Source: Deltaproteobacteria bacterium (GTDB taxonomy: Bacteria; SAR324; NAC60-12). Taken from it: 14,614 nt of DNA. A program made the position numbers and the translations under genes. This document shows positions 1,740-13,947 of the stretch, piece after piece (position 1 is the first letter of the stretch; each line of letters begins with the position of its first letter). Under the pieces are notes generated by a model. It worked only from the letters and a program-made list of their open reading frames with translations, was not told where the DNA came from and searched no databases. Location of the stretch: contig JAYOTF010000054.1 in NCBI GenBank assembly GCA_038150265.1, positions 1-14,614 on the forward strand, written 5' to 3'.

Positions 1740-2705
1740 TCAGTAAACGCCTGCTCGTAAAATCGGGTAAATCTGAACAATCCCCAAGGGGCTCCGCTGC
1801 TCATCAGCCACCACCAGGCACGTGATCGAGTGCGTTTCCATGAGGTGCAAGGCCTTTGCGGCCAGCTCTTCTGGCGCAATCAGCTTGGGATTGTGCGACA
1901 TGAACTGGGCAAGCGGCAAGTCCAGAAAATTATTTTGGGTCTCCACCAGCCGCATCAGGTCTCCGGTGGTGAAGACCCCAGCAGCCTTGCCTTCCGAATC
2001 CAGGGCCACCACAATGCCCAGGTTCTTCTGAGACAGCACCCGCATCGCTTCTCGCATGGAAAGCGATTCCGGAACCGTAGGCAGGTGCTCCCCTTCGGTC
2101 ATGACGTCCCGGACGCGAATGGTCAGTTTGCGTCCCAAGCTGCCTCCGGGATGAAACAGCGCAAAGTCTTCCGCCCGGAATCCACGCTTTTCCAGCAGGC
2201 ACATGGCCAGAGCATCTCCTAGCGCCAAGGTCGCTGTGCTGCTCGCAGTAGGCGCCAGGTTCAGCGGACAGGCCTCGCGACTGACCGCCACATTCAGGTG
2301 AACCGTTGCCCCACGAGCCAGCGTGGAGTCCGGATTCCCGGTGATCGCAATCAGCGGCGCTCCGTACGCCTGAATGTGCCCCACCATCTGCACCACCTCT
2401 GCCGTTTCGCCACTGTACGAAAAGGCGAGCACGACATCGTGGCGACGGATGATCCCCAAATCGCCATGCGCGCTGTCTGCAGCATGCAAAAATAGGGCAG
2501 GCGTCCCCGTACTGCTGAGAGTTGCCGCAATTTTTTGGGCCACCAGGCCACTTTTCCCCAGCCCCGTCAAAATGACCTTGCCGGAGCATGCGAAGAGGAT
2601 GTCGACGGCCTGCTCCAGCTCGTCGCCCAGACGTTGCTGAAGCTCCAGCAACCCCTCAATTTCAATGCGCAGGGTTTCGCGTGCGCGTTCCAGAAGGTTG
2701 GACAT
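1740..2705 (-). CDS. kdsD: KpsF/GutQ/KdsD-family arabinose-5-phosphate isomerase (SIS + 2 CBS domains)
   Basis: Motifs GLGKSG, ATLSSTGTPA, HGDLG, SYSGET, EACPLNLAPTAS, GDALA and FHPGGSLG, followed by a C-terminal CBS pair. Confidence 0.9.
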   Translation of the reverse strand: MSNLLERARETLRIEIEGLLELQQRLGDELEQAVDILFACSGKVILTGLGKSGLVAQKIAATLSSTGTPALFLHAADSAHGDLGIIRRHDVVLAFSYSGETAEVVQMVGHIQAYGAPLIAITGNPDSTLARGATVHLNVAVSREACPLNLAPTASSTATLALGDALAMCLLEKRGFRAEDFALFHPGGSLGRKLTIRVRDVMTEGEHLPTVPESLSMREAMRVLSQKNLGIVVALDSEGKAAGVFTTGDLMRLVETQNNFLDLPLAQFMSHNPKLIAPEELAAKALHLMETHSITCLVVADEQRSPLGIVQIYPILRAGVY

Positions 2706-2752: not shown

Positions 2753-3883
2753 TCAACCGTAGAGGATGCCCTGTTTTTTGAAGTGCCGGAGGGTCGCGGA
2801 ATCCCGCAGGTCCCCAGACTTCAAAATAATGGCATCCGTGTGGTGCGAGCCACTTTTGCTCGGAAGCGTTCCACCAACCGCCAAACGGTATGGAGGAATG
2901 ACCGGAATGAGGAAGGTCTCGTCTCCGACCACGCACTCCAGTGGGGTGACCAACTCTCCGGTGTCTTCATCAAAGATCCGCTTGCCCGAGGCCATCACAA
3001 CGCCGCTGGCGACAATGGAGCCTTCGCCGATGATGCCACAGACCTCGCACATGGCTCCGATTTTGGCATGGTCTTCCACGATGGAGGCCAAGCGCCCCGC
3101 CGGTTCCAGGATGCCTTCAATGCCTGAGCCGGCACCAAACTTTACGCCTTTGCCGATCTGGGCGCAAGACGCCACCCGAGTGCCTCCGTCAATCATGCAG
3201 CCTCCCCCAGCGATGTACGCACCGATGTTGATGAAGGCCTGGTTCATGACCACCGTCTGAGGCCCAATGTACGCCCCCGTCCGGACCATGGCTCCCGGAG
3301 CGTAGCGGACGCCTCCCTGCTCAAACATCTCCGCCGTGTAATTGCTGGTCTTCAGCGGGATCTTGTCGTAATACCCACCTTCCATCACCACATTCGGATG
3401 CGTCCCAAAGTAGTTGAGCACCCCATCAATCGTGTAGGTTTGCGGCTCCCAGACGCCCTTGACCTTCTCCGCCGCCCGAACCTTCCCCTCGTTGAGGAAC
3501 TCAATAAACGAATCACACTCTTCCCGAGAGGCCTTGCGCTGCGCGATCACCTCCAGCAGATTGGGAAAGGCGCTTTCCACTCGCTCCACCCGCAACGCAT
3601 CGGTGTTGCGAAGGCCCAAAAGCATCTCAATCTTCTGGTGACGTCCCGGACTCTGGCGTGCGCTTTCGACGTACTCGCCAAAAATGCGGAGCGCCTCCTG
3701 GGCCGCCGCAAAGTCGAAACGCCCCTGATCATCAGCCAAGTGGTGAAACACCCGCAGGGGTCCACAACGGCCGGGAAGGTTGGGAAGAAGGGCCACCAAC
3801 TCATCCTTGGCATCATACACGCGCAACAGGACAACGTTGGGCGCTTCCGGGATCGTTTTGAGGTTCTCTTCGAACGTGCTCAT
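2753..3883 (-). CDS. dapD: DUF2322-like domain fused to tetrahydrodipicolinate N-succinyltransferase (DapD-like)
   Basis: The C-terminal ~270 aa align by eye with E. coli-type DapD (GKVRAAEK, YYDKIPLK, VRTGAYI, INIGAYI, SCAQIGK, LEP, IFDEDTGE, GTLPSKSG). The N-terminal ~100 aa resemble DUF2322. Start moved from 3916 to the ATG at 3883 (MSTFEENL). Confidence 0.8.
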   Translation of the reverse strand: MSTFEENLKTIPEAPNVVLLRVYDAKDELVALLPNLPGRCGPLRVFHHLADDQGRFDFAAAQEALRIFGEYVESARQSPGRHQKIEMLLGLRNTDALRVERVESAFPNLLEVIAQRKASREECDSFIEFLNEGKVRAAEKVKGVWEPQTYTIDGVLNYFGTHPNVVMEGGYYDKIPLKTSNYTAEMFEQGGVRYAPGAMVRTGAYIGPQTVVMNQAFINIGAYIAGGGCMIDGGTRVASCAQIGKGVKFGAGSGIEGILEPAGRLASIVEDHAKIGAMCEVCGIIGEGSIVASGVVMASGKRIFDEDTGELVTPLECVVGDETFLIPVIPPYRLAVGGTLPSKSGSHHTDAIILKSGDLRDSATLRHFKKQGILYG

Positions 3884-3929: not shown

Positions 3930-5300
3930 TTAAAAATGCTTCAGCGGAGCCTTCCCCAGTGGAAAGACGTTGAAGCCCATTTCAAATAACGTCTGATGAT
4001 CGAGGTGATTGCGACCATCAAACAGAAACGCAGGCTGGGTCATTGAGTCCAGAATCCGGGCAAAATCAAGATCCCGATACTCACGCCACTGAGTGACCAG
4101 GGCAATCGCCGCAGCTCCCTCGCACGCGTCATAAACATCTTCACAAAACGCAATGTCGCCTTCCATTGTGGCCAGATCCTCCTGCGCATGCTCCGCCGCT
4201 TTCGGGTCGTGAATGCGAACCACTGCATGCTCGCCCAGCAGTTTTTGGCACAGCGGAATTGCAGGGGAATCCCGGGTGTCTCCGGTATCCGGCTTGAAGG
4301 CAAATCCCAGGACCGCGATCTTCTTCCCAGCGAGGGTGTTGAACTGTTCGTGAAGGATCTTCTGGAAGAACCGATCGGTCTGCCACTCATTGATCCGGAC
4401 CACACTCGCCCAGTAGTCGGCGACCTCCGGAAGGCCATAAAACTCGCAGAGGTAAGACAGGTGCAGGATGTCTTTCCGGAAGCAGGACCCGCCAAACCCA
4501 ACGCTCGCCTCCAGGAACTTGGCTCCAATGCGGGAGTCGGCACCAATCGCCCGGGAGATTTCAGAAACGTTGGCTTCCGTCTGCTCGCAGAGGGCAGAGA
4601 TGGAGTTGATGGATGAAATCCGCTGAGCCAGCATCGCGTTGGCCACCAGCTTTGAAAGCTCACTGCTCCAGACATTCGTCAGCAGGATGCGCTCCCGGGG
4701 CACCCAGTGGGCGTAAAGGCTGGCAATCGTCTCCGCGGCCTTGCGTCCGGAGTCGGTCTCGGTGCCTCCAATCAGCACCCGGTCCGGATGGGCCAGGTCG
4801 GCCATGGCCGTGCCTTCGGCGAGGAACTCGGGGTTGGAGACCACATCAAACCGTGTGGTGGAGCTTCCGGATTTGAGAATCTGCGCCATCGCCTCCGCCG
4901 TCCGGACGGGCAGCGTGCTCTTCTCCACCACGACGACTTCCGGACGCCGGGCATGCTTCAGGATGTCCCGAGCCGTTTTTTCCCAATACTGCAGATCCGC
5001 CGCTTTTCCAGCCCCCTCGCCAAATTCCTTGGTCGGCGTGTTGACCGAGACGAAGAGGATGTCCGCTTCAGCAATGGCCTGGGGGATGTCGGTGCTGAAG
5101 AACAGGTTGCGGCCACGGGCTTCCTGAACCACTTCCAGAAGGCCGGGCTCATAAATGGGGAGGTCGTCTGTGTTCCAACGGTCGATGCGGGCTTGATTCA
5201 GGTCCACAACGGTGACCTGGTGCTCGGGGCAATGCTTCGCAATAGCCGCCATGGTGGGACCACCGACGTATCCGGCGCCGATGCAGGTAATGTTTGCCAT
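3930..5300 (-). CDS. ugd: UDP-glucose 6-dehydrogenase
   Basis: Rossmann motif IGAGYVGGPT, plus VEKSTLPV, SNPEFLAEG, SSELSKL, catalytic GFGGSCF, GFAFKPDTGDTRDSP and FDGRN. Confidence 0.96.
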   Translation of the reverse strand: MANITCIGAGYVGGPTMAAIAKHCPEHQVTVVDLNQARIDRWNTDDLPIYEPGLLEVVQEARGRNLFFSTDIPQAIAEADILFVSVNTPTKEFGEGAGKAADLQYWEKTARDILKHARRPEVVVVEKSTLPVRTAEAMAQILKSGSSTTRFDVVSNPEFLAEGTAMADLAHPDRVLIGGTETDSGRKAAETIASLYAHWVPRERILLTNVWSSELSKLVANAMLAQRISSINSISALCEQTEANVSEISRAIGADSRIGAKFLEASVGFGGSCFRKDILHLSYLCEFYGLPEVADYWASVVRINEWQTDRFFQKILHEQFNTLAGKKIAVLGFAFKPDTGDTRDSPAIPLCQKLLGEHAVVRIHDPKAAEHAQEDLATMEGDIAFCEDVYDACEGAAAIALVTQWREYRDLDFARILDSMTQPAFLFDGRNHLDHQTLFEMGFNVFPLGKAPLKHF

Positions 5301-7815: not shown

Positions 7816-9165
7816 TTACTCGACGCGCTGAATGACATGAAAGCCGAAGGGCGTCTCCACCACGCCACTGACCTCTCCGGGCTTGAGCAGGAACGCTGCG
7901 TCTTCAAATTCCGGGACCATCTGCCCACGTGGGAAGCGTCCCAGCATGCCTCCTTGCGGAGCAGAAGGCCCATCGGAGTTGCTCTTGGCCAACTCCTCAA
8001 AGTTTTCTCCCCCCTGGGCCCGCTTGACGAGGTCCTGCGCCAGCGCCATGGCTTCATCCCGAGAGCGCGTCTGGGTGGCACGTGCCGCCCCCTGGTACTG
8101 AATGAGGATGTGCCGGGCCGTGATCAGCTCCAGCGGTATGCGGTGGAAGACGATGTAGCCAAAGGGCGTGTCCACCGGGTCGCTGATCTGCCCCTCCTTG
8201 AGGGTAAACACCGACTGGAAGAAGGGGGGAAGCTGAGGATCCTGACGAGCCAGCATCGGCAACTTGGGTTGTTCCGGAAGGTCCGTCAGCTCCTGAGACA
8301 GCTCCGCAAAGTTGACCCCTTCGCGACGGGCCAGATCCGCGATCTGCCCTGCGACATCCGCGGCCTCTTCTTTGGAGTAGTAAAGGTTCTGCCGGGGAGA
8401 ACGCGACCCCTGGTAGGCAATGACCAGCAGCTCCAGCGCCACCTCATCCACCTGCGGCTGCCCAGAAGCCGGAACCTTGGCCGGGTCGAGGTCGGCAGTC
8501 ACTTCCGGCAACGTTTTCTTGTTCTTTTCTGCGAGCTTGCGCATGGCGGCAACCGCCTCAGCTTCAACCGCAGTGGGGTCAAAGGCCTTTGCCTGATCGC
8601 CCACCGGCTCGATGGTCACCTTGTTGATGAGGTCCCCCTGCGCAATGGCGTTCACAACGTCCATGCCCTCGGCAACTTCCCCAAACACCGAGTGCTTGCC
8701 GTCGAGCCAGGGCGTTGGGACATGCGTGATGAAGAACTGGCTGCCGTTCGTGTTCGGACCGGCATTGGCCATGGAGAGCACACCAGGCTTGTCGTGCTTG
8801 AGAGCCGGGACAATTTCGTCAGCAAACTGGTACCCGGGGCCTCCGGAGCCGTTGCCCAACGGGTCCCCGCCCTGAATCATGAAGTTGTCAATCACGCGGT
8901 GGAAGCTCAGGCCATCATAAAAGTGGCTGGTCCGGGGCTCCTTGGTGATGGGGTCCTTCCACTCCTTGGAGCCAGACGCCAGCCCCACAAAATTGGCGAC
9001 GGTCTGAGGAACCTGCTGGTAGAACAGGCGAAGCACAATGGTGCCCTTGCTCGTCTCCATCCGGGCATAGAGGCCATCAGGAAGAGCAGCTCCGACCGGT
9101 CCGGCAGCAAGCAGCGACAGGGTCAGAAGGACAAAAGGGATCAAGAAGGAACGCAACCGAAACAT
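7816..9165 (-). CDS. Exported peptidyl-prolyl isomerase: signal peptide + cyclophilin + two parvulin domains
   Basis: Start refined to the ATG at 9165, which gives the signal peptide [26 protein letters not shown]. Cyclophilin motifs: [41 protein letters not shown]. Parvulin motifs: ARHILI...GGMLG...[10 protein letters not shown]...[10 protein letters not shown] degenerate parvulin lies between them. Confidence 0.92.
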
Positions 9166-9323
9166 GAGCGATGAGGAGACGGGGGTGTCGAAGGGGTGGA
9201 GGGGTTGCCCAGGTTGAGCAAAAAGTCCCTGAGAGCCAAGCGCGACATCAGAGTCGGAATTCAGCAAGGTGCAGAGCAGGCTAGGTTGAGCAAGGTTCCA
9301 CAAGAAACGTTGAGGAATTTCCT

Positions 9324-9440: not shown

Positions 9441-10931
9441 TCACCGGAGGATGTTCTTGAGGGTCTCGATCTTGCGAACCATCTGCCCGTCTCCCGCATA
9501 GCGCTCGGCAAACCGAAGCTGCTGCGTCAACTCGGCACTCAGGTCCGCAGGCAGCAGGCCGTCCTGGCTCTTTTCCAGGATCTGCCGCTGGGCGTTGTCG
9601 ACCACCATGCCCGGAAGCACCTTGAGCAGCACATCGCGCTGCTTGAGGGCCTGAGACAGCTGGGCGTCATTGGAGGCCCGCAGCGACGCATCCTGCAGCG
9701 TCTCCAGCGCCGAGATGTAGGTCTGGATCTTCAGGTGCTCGTCCTTCTGACGCTGCGCCGCGCGGATCTGCTCCACCGCCTGCAGGTAGTAGCGCTCAAA
9801 GTCGCTCTCTTCGCCACTGGACGGGATCACCGAGCGAGGGACATTCAGGGCGGTCGGGGCATCCAGCAGTTGCTGGCGACGCGCCACGCTCTGGTCGGTG
9901 ACGCTGTAGAAGGAGACGATGATCGAGTTCCGGTCCGTGATTTCCACAAACGGAGGCAGCTCAAAGATGTCCGGATTGATCTGCGCCCGCAGGAAGACTC
10001 GCTTCTGGTGCTCCACATCCGTCACCAGCTCAACGTAACGGAGGTACTCCAGCGACCGGAATCCCGGGATCTCCCGAAGCTTCTCCGCATTGGGAATGAC
10101 CACCTGCACATAAAACTGGTTGCGGCGCATCCCGGTTTCCGGATCACGCATGCTCTGCTCCACAACCTGAAACGGGAACATGTCGGCAGTCAGGTCCATT
10201 GGGCGATCAAAGAAGACCTCAATGCCAAAGCGATAGATGTTCCGGAGCTCATCTTCGGTCTGCCGGGGAATCGCCACCATTTCCCGCACCTTGAAGGTCT
10301 TGCTCTGAATGACGTCTCCAGGCAGCGGTTCCGGGCTCAGGGCGCCATTCTGCAGCAGGCGGTAGGCCATCGGGTACGTCAGGACCTCCCGCATGCCGTT
10401 TTCCAGCTCAATCACATACCGGTAGCGGTTGCCCTGGCTATCGGTGGCAAAACGGCTTTCCTCGCCCGGCAGCAGCAGACGGAAGCGGCTCATCGCGAGC
10501 TTGACGCTCCGTCCTTCAAGCATGTCGTGTTCCGGGAACACCTTCGTGTAGAACTTCGCCCGCAGGGCCTCCTTGTGGAACTCGTTCTTGTCAAGAACCG
10601 CAAACTCCGTGCTTTCTGGTGACGGAAAAATGAGGGCCTGGTTTCCGGGAAGCCGAAGCTGGTCCGTCAGGGTCCACTCATAAATCCGGTCCATCAGCCA
10701 GTCCCGGGTCGAGCCATCGTCCAGCAGGGCCTGCAGGTAGTACTCGGTTTCCGTCCGGCTTTTCACAAAGACGGCATTGACGCGGAAGGTCTTGAACTCT
10801 CCGCGGTTCAGAACATTGGCCAGGCGGATGGCGTTTTCGCGACTCGTGTACTTAGGGAAGGCGAGTGCGGTGGTCGTGAAGCCGACCAGAGCCCATCCGA
10901 GTGCCAGCAAGATCAGAAAGCGCTTACTCAA
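9441..10931 (-). CDS. Exported hypothetical protein (signal peptide, central AMIN-like beta domain, helical C-terminus)
   Basis: Long ORF with core-like codon usage, ending at a terminator. Preferred start is TTG at 10931: SD GGGAG just upstream, a TTGAGTAA overlap with the upstream stop, and signal peptide MSKRFLILLALGWALVGFTTTALA. Alternative ATGs at 10946 and 10958. Confidence 0.85.
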   Translation of the reverse strand: MSKRFLILLALGWALVGFTTTALAFPKYTSRENAIRLANVLNRGEFKTFRVNAVFVKSRTETEYYLQALLDDGSTRDWLMDRIYEWTLTDQLRLPGNQALIFPSPESTEFAVLDKNEFHKEALRAKFYTKVFPEHDMLEGRSVKLAMSRFRLLLPGEESRFATDSQGNRYRYVIELENGMREVLTYPMAYRLLQNGALSPEPLPGDVIQSKTFKVREMVAIPRQTEDELRNIYRFGIEVFFDRPMDLTADMFPFQVVEQSMRDPETGMRRNQFYVQVVIPNAEKLREIPGFRSLEYLRYVELVTDVEHQKRVFLRAQINPDIFELPPFVEITDRNSIIVSFYSVTDQSVARRQQLLDAPTALNVPRSVIPSSGEESDFERYYLQAVEQIRAAQRQKDEHLKIQTYISALETLQDASLRASNDAQLSQALKQRDVLLKVLPGMVVDNAQRQILEKSQDGLLPADLSAELTQQLRFAERYAGDGQMVRKIETLKNILR

Positions 10932-11844
10932 AATTTTCTCCCACATAAATTTCCACATCAGTGCCCATCTTATTGGTTCGGCTCAGGGGCATGGGTTCCA
11001 CAACCTGCTCCCCAGGAATCAGCTCAGACAGCGCCAGGGCCGCTTTGAGGAAGTTGGGGCGGAAGTAAATCTTGGTCTTCATCAGGCTCACCTCTTCCCG
11101 GACCGACGAGATGTTGAGGATCTCCAGCTTCATCCCCAGCCGGTCTTCCAGGGCACGGCGCTGCTGACGCTCCAGCAGGATCGCCAGGCGCTGGGCGCTG
11201 CTGACATGCGGGGAAGCATTCAGGATCGACAGGTTCAGCTGCAGGGGCTGCTGATAGGCAAAGAGCGCTGCCACCGGATGCAGCAAGACCGCTTCCCGGG
11301 CACTCAGCCCAGGCTGGGCCAGGCTGGGGAGGGAGCCTTGTTCCACCAGGGAGTTGTCCTCGCTGGCCACCGGAATGTCCGGCGTCTTGCGGGGCACCTC
11401 CACCAGGGCAAATGCCAGCTGCTGGCCGTTCGAGCGCTCCGGATCCACCCGGACCGTTGCTTCCTTCGTGGAGAGGATGTCCAGCTTCACCACAAATTCC
11501 GGAGGCCCCTCTGCGGTTCGGTCAATGCTTTCCTGAATCTGAAACTCGCGAAGCAGCCCCTCTTCCGGAAAGTCCCGAAACTCGCGCTCCGGCAGCAAGA
11601 CGCTGTTGACAAAGGCCTGGGGGATGGTAATGACGCTCCGTTCAAACGCGTCATCGGTCTCAATGCTGATGCGCTCAAACAGGGCGGGGTCAAACTGTCC
11701 CTTGATGGTCAAGTACGACTTGGGGAGCCCAGCGACATACTCCACCTGATCCAGCATGTGCCCAGTCGTCTGGGCCTGGACCAGTGATGCCCCTAGCGTC
11801 AGCCCAATGACTCCTGCGAGAATCCGGGACCAAAAACGTTTCAT
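10924..11844 (-). CDS. Exported protein with C-terminal LytR_C-like domain
   Basis: SD GAGGAG and signal peptide ending VQA. The C-terminus LSILNAS...AQRLA...TKIYF...ALALSELI...DVEIYVGENF matches the LytR_C pattern (VxVLNG...A..L...TxIxY...A..la..l...dv.vivG.df). Confidence 0.8.
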   Translation of the reverse strand: MKRFWSRILAGVIGLTLGASLVQAQTTGHMLDQVEYVAGLPKSYLTIKGQFDPALFERISIETDDAFERSVITIPQAFVNSVLLPEREFRDFPEEGLLREFQIQESIDRTAEGPPEFVVKLDILSTKEATVRVDPERSNGQQLAFALVEVPRKTPDIPVASEDNSLVEQGSLPSLAQPGLSAREAVLLHPVAALFAYQQPLQLNLSILNASPHVSSAQRLAILLERQQRRALEDRLGMKLEILNISSVREEVSLMKTKIYFRPNFLKAALALSELIPGEQVVEPMPLSRTNKMGTDVEIYVGENFE

Positions 11845-12038: not shown

Positions 12039-12114
12039 GCGGGAGTAGCTCAGTTGGTAGAGCATCAGCCTTCCAAGCTGAGGGTCGCCGGTTCGAGCCC
12101 GGTTTCCCGCTCCA
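12039..12114 (+). tRNA. tRNA-Gly (TCC)
   Basis: 76 nt. Acceptor GCGGGAG/TTCCCGC, anticodon arm TCAGC-CTTCCAA-GCTGA, T-loop TTCGAGC, U73 discriminator, encoded CCA. Confidence 0.98.
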
Positions 12115-12149
12115 ACGCCTCTGTTGGTCAGCACACACATCCTTCCGAT

Positions 12150-12226
<77 letters not shown>

Positions 12227-12392: not shown

Positions 12393-13082
12393 CTACCCCT
12401 CCTTCGTTTCGATTCTCACTTCGCCATATTGCTCAGACTCCCGCTCCGTCACTTCCTTCCAGGGCACCTCCCTCCCCTCTTCCCAGTCCTTTGCTGCCTG
12501 AGTGGGAACCGGCTTGAGCATCTCCGGACGCATGGGGAGCATGCCATGCCCCAGGAAGCGACCAATCAGGATCTCCCTGACATAGTTTGAAGGAGGAACC
12601 CCTACATGCTCAGCCAGTTTCCCCAGGTCTCCCTTCAGCCGCAGGGGAATCCAGACCTTCATTGGTTTGATATTCTTGCCAAGCTCAGGAACCCAGTACG
12701 TCTGGATCCGAACCGGCTTCTGGGGGGAATCAGACCTCAACGAAAATCTGGCACCTGTGTCATAAGCCTGGAAGGGGTCACCAAATTGCTGCCGGATGTA
12801 CTCAAAGGTGTAAAGTCCATAACAGTGGACAATGAGGAAGTTTCGGATCAGCCGGCTCATGGTGGTGCTGTAATCACTGGCAATTTTACGAATTGCCTGC
12901 TCTGCAGCTTCCGGCAGCCAGAACTTCAGCGCCACATCATCAATCGTCAGATCATGGATTTCTCCAAGCTGCTCCTCCAGGTCCTGAAGGCTGAGGGGGC
13001 AATCCACCTTCCCTTGATCACTGGGCGCCCAGTCTGAGCTCTGCTGTGCCTGGGGTCGTTTTCTTCTCAGGAAGGCCCACAT
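12393..13082 (-). CDS. Tandem ribbon-helix-helix DNA-binding protein
   Basis: Has SD GGAG and its own promoter. Residues 50-89 and 139-178 form an ungapped internal repeat with an RHH strand-helix-helix pattern. Confidence 0.75.
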   Translation of the reverse strand: MWAFLRRKRPQAQQSSDWAPSDQGKVDCPLSLQDLEEQLGEIHDLTIDDVALKFWLPEAAEQAIRKIASDYSTTMSRLIRNFLIVHCYGLYTFEYIRQQFGDPFQAYDTGARFSLRSDSPQKPVRIQTYWVPELGKNIKPMKVWIPLRLKGDLGKLAEHVGVPPSNYVREILIGRFLGHGMLPMRPEMLKPVPTQAAKDWEEGREVPWKEVTERESEQYGEVRIETKEG

Positions 13083-13123
13083 GGGTGCTCCGGAAAAAGT
13101 AGGGGAATTTTCAACAGGAGCAG

Positions 13124-13151
13124 ATTATAGCGTATGCTGAAGAAGCCGCAA
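13124..13151 (-). promoter_or_regulatory. sigma70 promoter for the tandem-RHH gene
   Basis: Minus strand TTGCGG-16 nt-TATAAT, about 40 nt upstream of the ATG at 13082. Confidence 0.6.
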
Positions 13152-13218
13152 TGCCGGGGCTGATGTGATACGGCACCTGAGGCATGACGCCCCCTCCACC
13201 TGCTCATGGGAGACCAGG

Positions 13219-13947
13219 ATGACCACCTACTATGTTCAGATCTACCACTGCCCAAAATGTGATGAGTCGTTTGGCCATTTGTCACTGAGCTCCTACTACC
13301 TGGCTGGCAATGCCGATAAAGCAGAGCTGAGGTTCTACCACTCTGAGGTCAGGGCCAGTCAGAAAGTTGATGAGGGAGAGATGAGGTTCTACCACGCTGA
13401 GCTCAACCACAATCAGCACAAGGCCTTCATGATTTGCAAGGCCTGTGGCCAGTGCTCCTGGAAGGGGAACTTCACTGAACTGGATTCGATCGGGTACGGG
13501 GAGTATCAAAGCCTCTCTGATGCGGGGGCTCCTCCGCTCTTTTCTTCCGTTCGTCTCCTCTCCCCCTTCGACTGCGCTCATGATGAGCTGCTGCAGCATT
13601 ATTTCTGGATGACACCGGCTCAAGAGGTCTTCATCAGGACCGCCTCATGGGAGGCCTTCAGGCGTGATTGCGATCAAGGAGAGCCGTTGCCTCCCTTGCA
13701 GGAGGAGAACATCCAATGCCTCTTACCGATGCTGGAAACCCTGGACTCTGAGACCCTCCTGCTGAAAGCCGACCTGCTCAGAGTGATGGGGCAGTTCAAG
13801 GAGTGCCTCACGGTAATGGAACAGGTCCCTGAGGAGGAGTGGGGAGAGCAGATGAAGAAGGTTGAGGAACTGGCAAAAGCCGGCAGCCAGACGATCCTGA
13901 AACGGTCTGGGAGGCACTTGTGGAGGTTGATCAAGCCGATGTTTTGA
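13219..13947 (+). CDS. Hypothetical protein with two CxxC motifs (putative Zn ribbon) and a TPR-like C-terminal hairpin
   Basis: Start refined to the ATG at 13219 (GGGAGACCAGG upstream). Motifs CPKC and CKACGQC, then LLKADLLRVMGQFKECLTVME. Confidence 0.75.
   Translation: MTTYYVQIYHCPKCDESFGHLSLSSYYLAGNADKAELRFYHSEVRASQKVDEGEMRFYHAELNHNQHKAFMICKACGQCSWKGNFTELDSIGYGEYQSLSDAGAPPLFSSVRLLSPFDCAHDELLQHYFWMTPAQEVFIRTASWEAFRRDCDQGEPLPPLQEENIQCLLPMLETLDSETLLLKADLLRVMGQFKECLTVMEQVPEEEWGEQMKKVEELAKAGSQTILKRSGRHLWRLIKPMF
13323..13405 (+). repeat. Intragenic direct repeat, 29 nt, period 54
   Basis: AGAGCTGAGGTTCTACCACTCTGAGGTCA (13323-51) vs AGAGATGAGGTTCTACCACGCTGAGCTCA (13377-405), 26/29 identical. 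Confidence 0.9.

Follow-up and report, generated by a model that had tools for sequence, protein, structure and literature searches.

The described structures of DapD, the succinyltransferase of diaminopimelate and lysine synthesis, can be divided into a short class, to which the Escherichia coli enzyme belongs (TIGR00965, PRK11830; 1TDT, 2TDT, 3BXY, 9O8Y), and a long class, represented by the enzymes of Campylobacter jejuni (2RIJ, with the THDPS_N domain PF14790) and Pseudomonas aeruginosa (3R5A-D, TIGR03536). The latter bear an extra N-terminal subdomain, a region that PMC3281039 designates the distal subdomain of the DapD N-terminal domain (residues 1–133). Apart from DapD, the free-standing proteins of the DUF2322 family (PF10084) of Burkholderiales, Neisseriaceae, Pasteurellales and algae are about 105–110 amino acids long and unfused, with variable gene neighbors and dapD not nearby. 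The protein VPA0580 (2QHQ), which we take to be a member of the HopJ family (PF08888), is also free-standing, and its PDB entry is titled as being of unknown function. In a literature search that covered mostly papers outside subscription, no paper was found that names DUF2322 or that deals with SAR324 dapD or SAR324 lysine/diaminopimelate biosynthesis, and for the distal subdomain of DapD only PMC3281039 was recovered.

The SAR324 protein considered here resembles each of these in part. Like the long DapDs, it possesses an extra N-terminal subdomain with the same predicted fold at the same chain position, as well as an Arg at the succinyl-binding position, whereas its catalytic core is only distantly related to theirs (~21% identity by structure alignment; 9–13% for the subdomain) and the subdomain is otherwise placed in the model. 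As in the short DapDs, on which its residues 105–360 superpose, eight positions of the active-site region are identical; it differs from them in the 104-residue domain that they lack, in a C-terminal hairpin insertion typical of its family, in having Arg145, Glu165 and Met187 (E. coli numbering) and in scoring under the family cut-offs. Its N-terminal domain is 31–41% identical to the free-standing PF10084 proteins, with which it has Asn35, Glu70 and His82 in common, and finds a structural match in VPA0580. The architecture as such is already visible in databases, where an NCBI relative is named 'DUF2322 family protein' and a 53-member ESM Atlas cluster contains both families.

The window, i.e., the whole stretch of DNA that was analyzed, comprises 14,614 nucleotides (contig JAYOTF010000054.1 of assembly GCA_038150265.1), and the fused gene occupies 2753..3883 on its minus strand as an open reading frame of 376 amino acids joining DUF2322 to an E. 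coli-type DapD (ORF call, Pfam and PDB sequence matches), with an ATG at 3883, the stop at 2753–2755 and zero internal stops. A prior sequence-only reading, which gave no strand, had described about 100 DUF2322-like residues ahead of a complete DapD-like enzyme with no stop between them. This description holds for the single 376-residue frame, in which PF10084 matches residues 4–95 (E 2.6e-19, 69.6 bits against a gathering cut-off of 27), hexapeptide repeats follow downstream, and residues 102–359 match E. coli-type DapD chains in the PDB (E 6.6e-42). Along the minus strand, the DUF2322 domain (residues 1–104, 3572..3883) with its conserved polar residues Asn35, Glu70 and His82, a candidate ligand or catalytic site identified from family alignments (3638..3781), is followed by the DapD N-terminal helices and hairpin (residues 105–190, 3314..3571; defined by model pLDDT and a THDPS_N_2 match at residues 101–159 that stays under its cut-off, E 4e-4), the left-handed beta-helix catalytic domain (residues 191–305, 2969..3313) and the C-terminal domain (residues 306–376, 2756..2968), in which alignments and the secondary structure of the model place the family-specific beta-hairpin insertion. 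The full-length model, built from 43 sequences, has a mean pLDDT of 84.5 and a pTM of 0.84, the five models spanning 60 to 84.5. In this predicted model, the last DUF2322 strand (97–103) passes directly into the first DapD helix (109–114), with a pLDDT of 91–96 over residues 81–130 and without a loose or low-confidence linker.

An assembly artefact or the joining of two separate ORFs was considered and rejected on the evidence of relatives and of read data. Eight further clusters at 90% identity, of 375–376 amino acids, bear both domains. The survey took in 88 genomes of the class and phylum, 64 from the window's order and 24 from other orders; 55 of the 64 give a match of almost full length in a single open frame uninterrupted by stops, the remainder being eight without a match (54–92% complete) and one with a 19-residue C-terminal fragment. 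The junction is spanned by contigs of three of four sequencing runs (three studies), in which the ORF is free of indels, the best of these runs possibly being the source sample; the fourth, RNA run X8, yielded only short pieces, the junction lying outside their coverage. All 47 PF10084 matches in the 88 phylum genomes fall in the DapD frame; hence, no free-standing DUF2322 was seen among them, and a free-standing DUF2322 or a second DapD in the phylum was likewise rejected as a candidate. In the window genome itself (97.8% complete), the single match for DUF2322 and the single match for DapD are both the fused ORF. DUF2322 was found in none of the 24 genomes from other orders, 12 of which gave a weak DapD match and from which the ten DapDs retrieved are all of the long Pseudomonas type, nor was it found in any of 14 control genomes; in viral contigs neither DUF2322 nor a fused DapD was found. 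A conserved internal start that might yield a short DapD was also discarded, as no position between 90 and 125 has Met, the only start residue counted, in more than 4 of 43 rows.

The enzyme part has the hallmarks of a short DapD. Residues 105–360 superpose on the solved short enzymes with a VIA Z of 27–28, an rmsd of 2.0–2.3 Å and 35–40% identity (Z ~28 and 2.0 Å for the beta-helix domain), and Foldseek comparison with short DapDs gives an E of ~1e-18, with the N-terminal helices, the left-handed beta-helix and the C-terminal domain fold all present. In all 28 fused rows R193, R201, N219, M230, D232, S239, E260 and E280 are identical to E. coli DapD, and the invariant set over these rows comprises R193, R201, N219, D232, R236, S239, E260 and E280. 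R193, R201, N219 and D232, namely two Arg, an Asn and an acidic residue, are putative acceptor-binding residues kept in 28/28 rows, and the active-site Asn, acidic and Arg positions of the long type map to N219, D232 and R236. For the Pseudomonas enzyme, PMC3281039 reports the roles of the acceptor-binding residues and the binding of succinate by Arg223. Since Arg236 (window 3176–3178) aligns with this succinate-binding Arg, which lies in the EGR motif of the long type, succinyl specificity would likely be retained in the fused DapD. At the same time, E. coli Arg187 is replaced by Met and Thr145 by Arg in 28/28 fused rows, and Gly at position 165 has become Glu family-wide. The Met at position 187 and Arg236 at the long-type succinate-binding position could possibly represent a compensating swap.

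In terms of family profiles, the window protein does not reach PRK11830 (173.7 vs a cut-off of 204 bits) or TIGR00965 (162 vs 375.4 bits), while its fused relative P0220, with 221 bits, exceeds the PRK11830 cut-off. It stays far below the long-type profile TIGR03536 (45.9 vs 518 bits), Pfam THDPS_N and THDPS_M give no match at E 0.01, and the profile of the acetyltransferase DapH, TIGR03532, is not reached either (63.3 vs 231.75 bits), the VIA Z to that type being 18.8 as against 28 for the succinyltransferases. The window genome encodes DapB and DapF above cut-off together with a deacylase of the ArgE/DapE family, and neither DapL nor Ddh gave a match above cut-off in it. The window protein is likely a tetrahydrodipicolinate N-acyltransferase with a succinyl donor, judging from its sequence and fold. 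As an aside on the distribution of the two DapD types, a Nonomuraea record (NZ_LT559118.1; L160, L161, H244) contains two short-type DapD-like genes and a long-type one.

When residues 1–104 were folded alone, without any DapD residues and on a 75-row DUF2322 alignment, an AF2 model with a pLDDT of 95.6 was obtained, whose top match in a VIA-align search of 48,161 representative solved chains is residues 3–130 of 2RIJ, i.e., the distal region of C. jejuni DapD (Z 9.1, rmsd 2.5 Å, 97/104 residues, 13% identity), a Z that barely exceeds the best values of 7–8 typically reached by models without a clear match. VPA0580 (2QHQ) comes second (Z 6.3, 87 residues) and residues 3–96 of P. aeruginosa DapD (3R5A) third (Z 4.6), with the fourth row at Z 3.6. 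Repeat structure searches with the lone model returned the same top match, and in a Foldseek search of the PDB the six top rows are all long-type DapDs, 2RIJ first (E 0.033, probability 0.91) and then the P. aeruginosa 3R5 chains. In a Pfam scan of 75 DUF2322 proteins against 24,736 families, the commonest extra family was THDPS_N, with matches in 8/75 proteins (E 0.012–0.21; the next family had three); all eight are under the cut-off and come from unfused proteins (0/11 fused rows), and all share one register, the His-motif stretch falling on THDPS_N positions 77/78 to 109–118 (72 of the 75 rows rescanned). No signal emerged when DUF2322 was aligned by hhalign with ten Pseudomonas-type N-termini, where 3 and 9 of 40 shuffles scored equally high, and the best E of the DUF2322 profile against PDB sequences was 0.36. 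The full model is collinear with 2RIJ (1–361 vs 3–380 by VIA), and the whole-chain rmsd to 2RIJ and 3R5 amounts to 13–14 Å, with 13.6 Å for 2RIJ; the domain thus sits differently in the model than in the long DapDs. DUF2322 is predicted to have the fold of the distal N-terminal subdomain of the Campylobacter and Pseudomonas DapDs, and the fold match along with the in-register THDPS_N matches suggests that it is probably an accessory domain of DapD that has stayed in position rather than an unrelated later recruit. The free-standing VPA0580 match indicates that this fold is not exclusive to DapD. The HopJ family appears to share it (2QHQ, Z 6.3); HopJ also ranks 25 in an ESM Atlas feature search and is a weak Pfam match of one DUF2322 protein, and a HopJ search gave no match in any of the 88 phylum genomes or in the controls.

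The fused proteins of the order fall into the window's own family and a sister family, which differ in the DUF2322 part. Asn35, Glu70 and His82 are each found in 27/27 own-family rows, and in other DUF2322 rows they are nearly as constant (His82 in 64/64, Glu70 in 58/64, Asn35 in 59/64). In the sister family Glu70 is found in 0/15 rows and His82 in 2/15, while Arg21, Pro34 and Asn35 stay, Arg21 and Pro34 being invariant in 42/42 rows of both family groups; in a separate count of the motif, 25/25 in the own family stand against 0/16 in the sister family. One own-family genome, L050, also has an eroded DUF2322 domain. The window protein keeps N35, E70, P79 and H82, and the PNID of the PGxHPNID motif reads QKIE. 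The mean identity of the DUF part is 56% within the own family, where the beta-helix reaches 86%, and 37% within the sister family, where the beta-helix reaches 80%. DUF2322 is thus present yet eroded in the sister family, with the DapD part still conserved.

Beyond the sampled genomes, 1.84 billion representatives were searched with a profile, which yielded 419 matches, 150 of them listed; among these, 19 longer ones were inspected and 15 domain-scanned, revealing at least five further DUF2322-DapD proteins that are 29–47% identical to the window protein. Three of these (P0217, P0245 and P0278) are 38–47% identical, have the same sub-type motifs and join the SAR324 clade in trees of the DapD part; the other two (P0220 and P0168) are 29–30% identical, have a different DapD sub-type and form long branches, which one DapD tree sets apart from the main fused clade. 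In another DapD tree, all 13 fused rows lie on one side of a branch (support 84/88), and the AU test does not reject a single clade of all fused DapDs (p-AU 0.67). For the main fused clade, the tree of the DUF domain is in agreement with that of the DapD part, the DUF domains of P0220 and P0168 grouping with unfused ones; over the 101 rows of the DUF tree, the fused label needs three changes, a number compatible with one origin. Thus, neither the DapD trees, nor the DUF tree, nor the AU test demonstrated independent fusions. We infer that the apparent fusion is likely an old DapD design, from which the free-standing DUF2322 of bacteria and algae would have split off; the unfused DapD sample behind this presumed direction comprised 10–16 rows, mostly from Proteobacteria.

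Free-standing DUF2322 is widespread and has heterogeneous gene neighborhoods, DUF2322 as a whole amounting to at least 2,422 clusters at 90% identity. Among the best 80 of 428 metagenome loci, nine are DapD fusions and 71 lack a fusion; with three DapD queries, dapD was found in the flanks of 0/71 unfused metagenome loci and 0/3 loci from a plasmid collection, these flanks being at most 5–6 kb, often ended by a contig edge and many of the loci being near-duplicates. No dap family was detected among 66 scanned neighbor proteins (drawn from 186 clusters), among them an MFS transporter, a GTPase, adenylosuccinate lyase, LysE and GST. The DUF2322 and dapD genes of one Neisseria record, at 418 kb and 1,633 kb, are about 1.2 Mb apart. 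A 17-row clade (support 97) takes in proteins whose names refer to Scenedesmus and to Timspurckia, a red alga; according to PMC3102117, which speaks of algae in general, their genomes lack dapD, and DapL depends on ring opening that occurs spontaneously. The clade is eukaryote-like (P0201, P0203, P0206, P0215, P0251), and the extensions of several members resemble plastid transit peptides by eye. A complex prediction for a Paraburkholderia DUF2322 with Swiss-Prot DAPD_PARXL, using one copy of each and with DapD folded without an alignment, scored 0.00 and is given no weight here. Given the unlinked loci, the distant Neisseria genes and the occurrence of algal homologues though dapD is reported to be absent there, free DUF2322 can likely do without DapD. 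DUF2322 also occurs as a C-terminal domain on MarR (P0158/P0286; Undibacterium; a cluster of 21), on isochorismatase (P0223/P0281–P0284; Chitinimonas; a cluster of six), on an alpha/beta hydrolase (L154:608–1720) and, by eye, on a methyltransferase-like protein (P0165).

These results bear on the proposal of the sequence-only reading that the fusion would tie DUF2322 to diaminopimelate synthesis, for example as a DapD regulator or partner. The tie to DapD is closer than this reading supposed, as the domain appears to be a homologue of a segment of the enzyme, namely the distal N-terminal subdomain of the long DapDs. A role of free-standing DUF2322 as regulator or partner finds no support: dapD is near 0/74 loci without the fusion, no dap family turned up among the 66 neighbor proteins scanned, the two genes are far apart in the Neisseria record, homologues exist in algae, which reportedly lack dapD, and the His/Glu site has been lost in the sister family while DapD is conserved.

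Around the fused gene itself, a co-oriented UDP-glucose dehydrogenase gene (ugd, 3930..5300, minus strand, by Pfam) lies upstream and a co-oriented KdsD/KpsF-type sugar-phosphate isomerase gene (1740..2705, minus strand, by NCBIfam) downstream. The neighbors conserved in the own family are ppi, cinA-like, gpmI and ugd upstream and kdsD downstream; dap genes are not among them. At five scanned sister-family loci (L037, L039, L040, L046, L048), an APH-family phosphotransferase gene stands upstream of the fusion in place of ugd. Elsewhere in the window, the gene at 7816–9303 (minus strand) encodes a protein in which a cyclophilin domain precedes a pair of parvulin domains, so that it combines two unrelated types of prolyl isomerase, and sequences homologous to it occur near the fusion gene in many own-family loci. 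Proteins of 505 (9441–10958, minus strand) and 306 amino acids (10924–11844, minus strand) have signal-peptide-like starts and no Pfam or NCBIfam match at E 0.01. Genes for tRNA-Gly and tRNA-Met (12039–12226, plus strand) are followed by two ORFs without a Pfam match (12393–13947), and GC declines to 0.48 at the window end; these tRNA-adjacent ORFs possibly represent an insertion at a tRNA.

The reading that we favor, and hold to be probable, is that the window protein is the sole DapD of its genome, likely the succinyltransferase of diaminopimelate and lysine synthesis, which has retained the long-type distal subdomain, i.e., DUF2322, on an E. coli-type core. From the conserved residues and the fold, the beta-helix core would trimerize and acylate ring-opened tetrahydrodipicolinate between subunits as in the solved DapDs. 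DUF2322, fixed rigidly to the first DapD helices in the predicted model with no flexible linker, would not be involved in acyl transfer, as the E. coli enzyme does without this domain. It would most likely be a structural cap, whose Asn35/Glu70/His82 site may bind a small ligand in the own family; this putative site would have decayed in the sister family, and free-standing DUF2322 would be this domain after its release from DapD, by now able to work on its own. There is a slim chance of a more active role, in which DUF2322 would be a small Asn/Glu/His hydrolase that opens the cyclic imine tetrahydrodipicolinate, whose ring opening is described as spontaneous, to 2-amino-6-oxopimelate, the form required for acylation and for transamination by DapL. 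It would have begun as the DapD distal subdomain, would still feed DapD in cis in SAR324 and would act as a free-standing protein in Betaproteobacteria as well as in algal plastids, with DapL as the recipient in the plastids. That the enzyme part is a diverged acyltransferase with an acetyl donor or another acceptor, and not a DapD of the succinylase pathway, seems very doubtful. Such a divergence might account for the scores under the NCBIfam DapD cut-offs, the substitutions shared by the whole family (in E. coli numbering, Thr145 to Arg, Gly165 to Glu and Arg187 to Met), and the location of the gene amid sugar-nucleotide genes rather than dap genes; however, the top structural matches are all succinyltransferases (Z ~28 vs 19 for the acetyl type), Arg236 aligns with the succinate-binding Arg of the Pseudomonas enzyme, and no other DapD, DapL or Ddh was found in the window genome.

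The history of the N-terminal domain can also be told the other way round. An old free-standing DUF2322 with its own job in the diaminopimelate pathway, be it binding lysine or tetrahydrodipicolinate or docking on DapD, might have been recruited repeatedly, at an early stage by the long DapDs and then anew in SAR324 and other lineages, a scenario we regard as rather unlikely while taking it seriously. The fused DUF domains do retain high scores against the free-standing family as well as its His, Glu and Asn residues, P0168 and P0220 carry another DapD subtype with DUF domains that group with unfused ones, the fusions to MarR, isochorismatase and alpha/beta-hydrolase domains point to a mobile domain, and the algal extensions seen by eye to resemble transit peptides fit in with this; yet one origin of the fused DapDs is not rejected by the tests, dapD is near none of the 74 unfused loci with dap families missing from the 66 neighbor proteins, and the His/Glu site is gone in the sister family. 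We would also give little credence to a mere passenger, namely an adjacent DUF2322 gene that merged with dapD by chance, with an unrelated job or none and a coincidental fold match. The DUF part is indeed the least conserved (56%/37% vs 86%/80% for the beta-helix in the own and sister families), the free-standing neighborhoods are heterogeneous and the domain is missing from the 14 control genomes. Chance would nevertheless have to explain at once the shared fold, its place at the N-terminus and the common register of the THDPS_N matches, and the domain has been dropped in 0/55 genomes, with Arg21 and Pro34 invariant in the 42 rows of both family groups.

In light of the favored reading, that of a DapD retaining its distal subdomain, DUF2322, a widespread domain, can be assigned a predicted fold and would probably have originated within an essential enzyme that has been studied in depth. 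The fused protein would represent a third DapD architecture, with a short-type core and a long-type distal subdomain, bridging the two structural classes described so far. This architecture also marks one SAR324 order. It would also complete a natural series from which the role of the subdomain might be approached, with the site intact in the window's own family, eroded in the sister family, the subdomain absent in E. coli and free-standing in Betaproteobacteria and algae.
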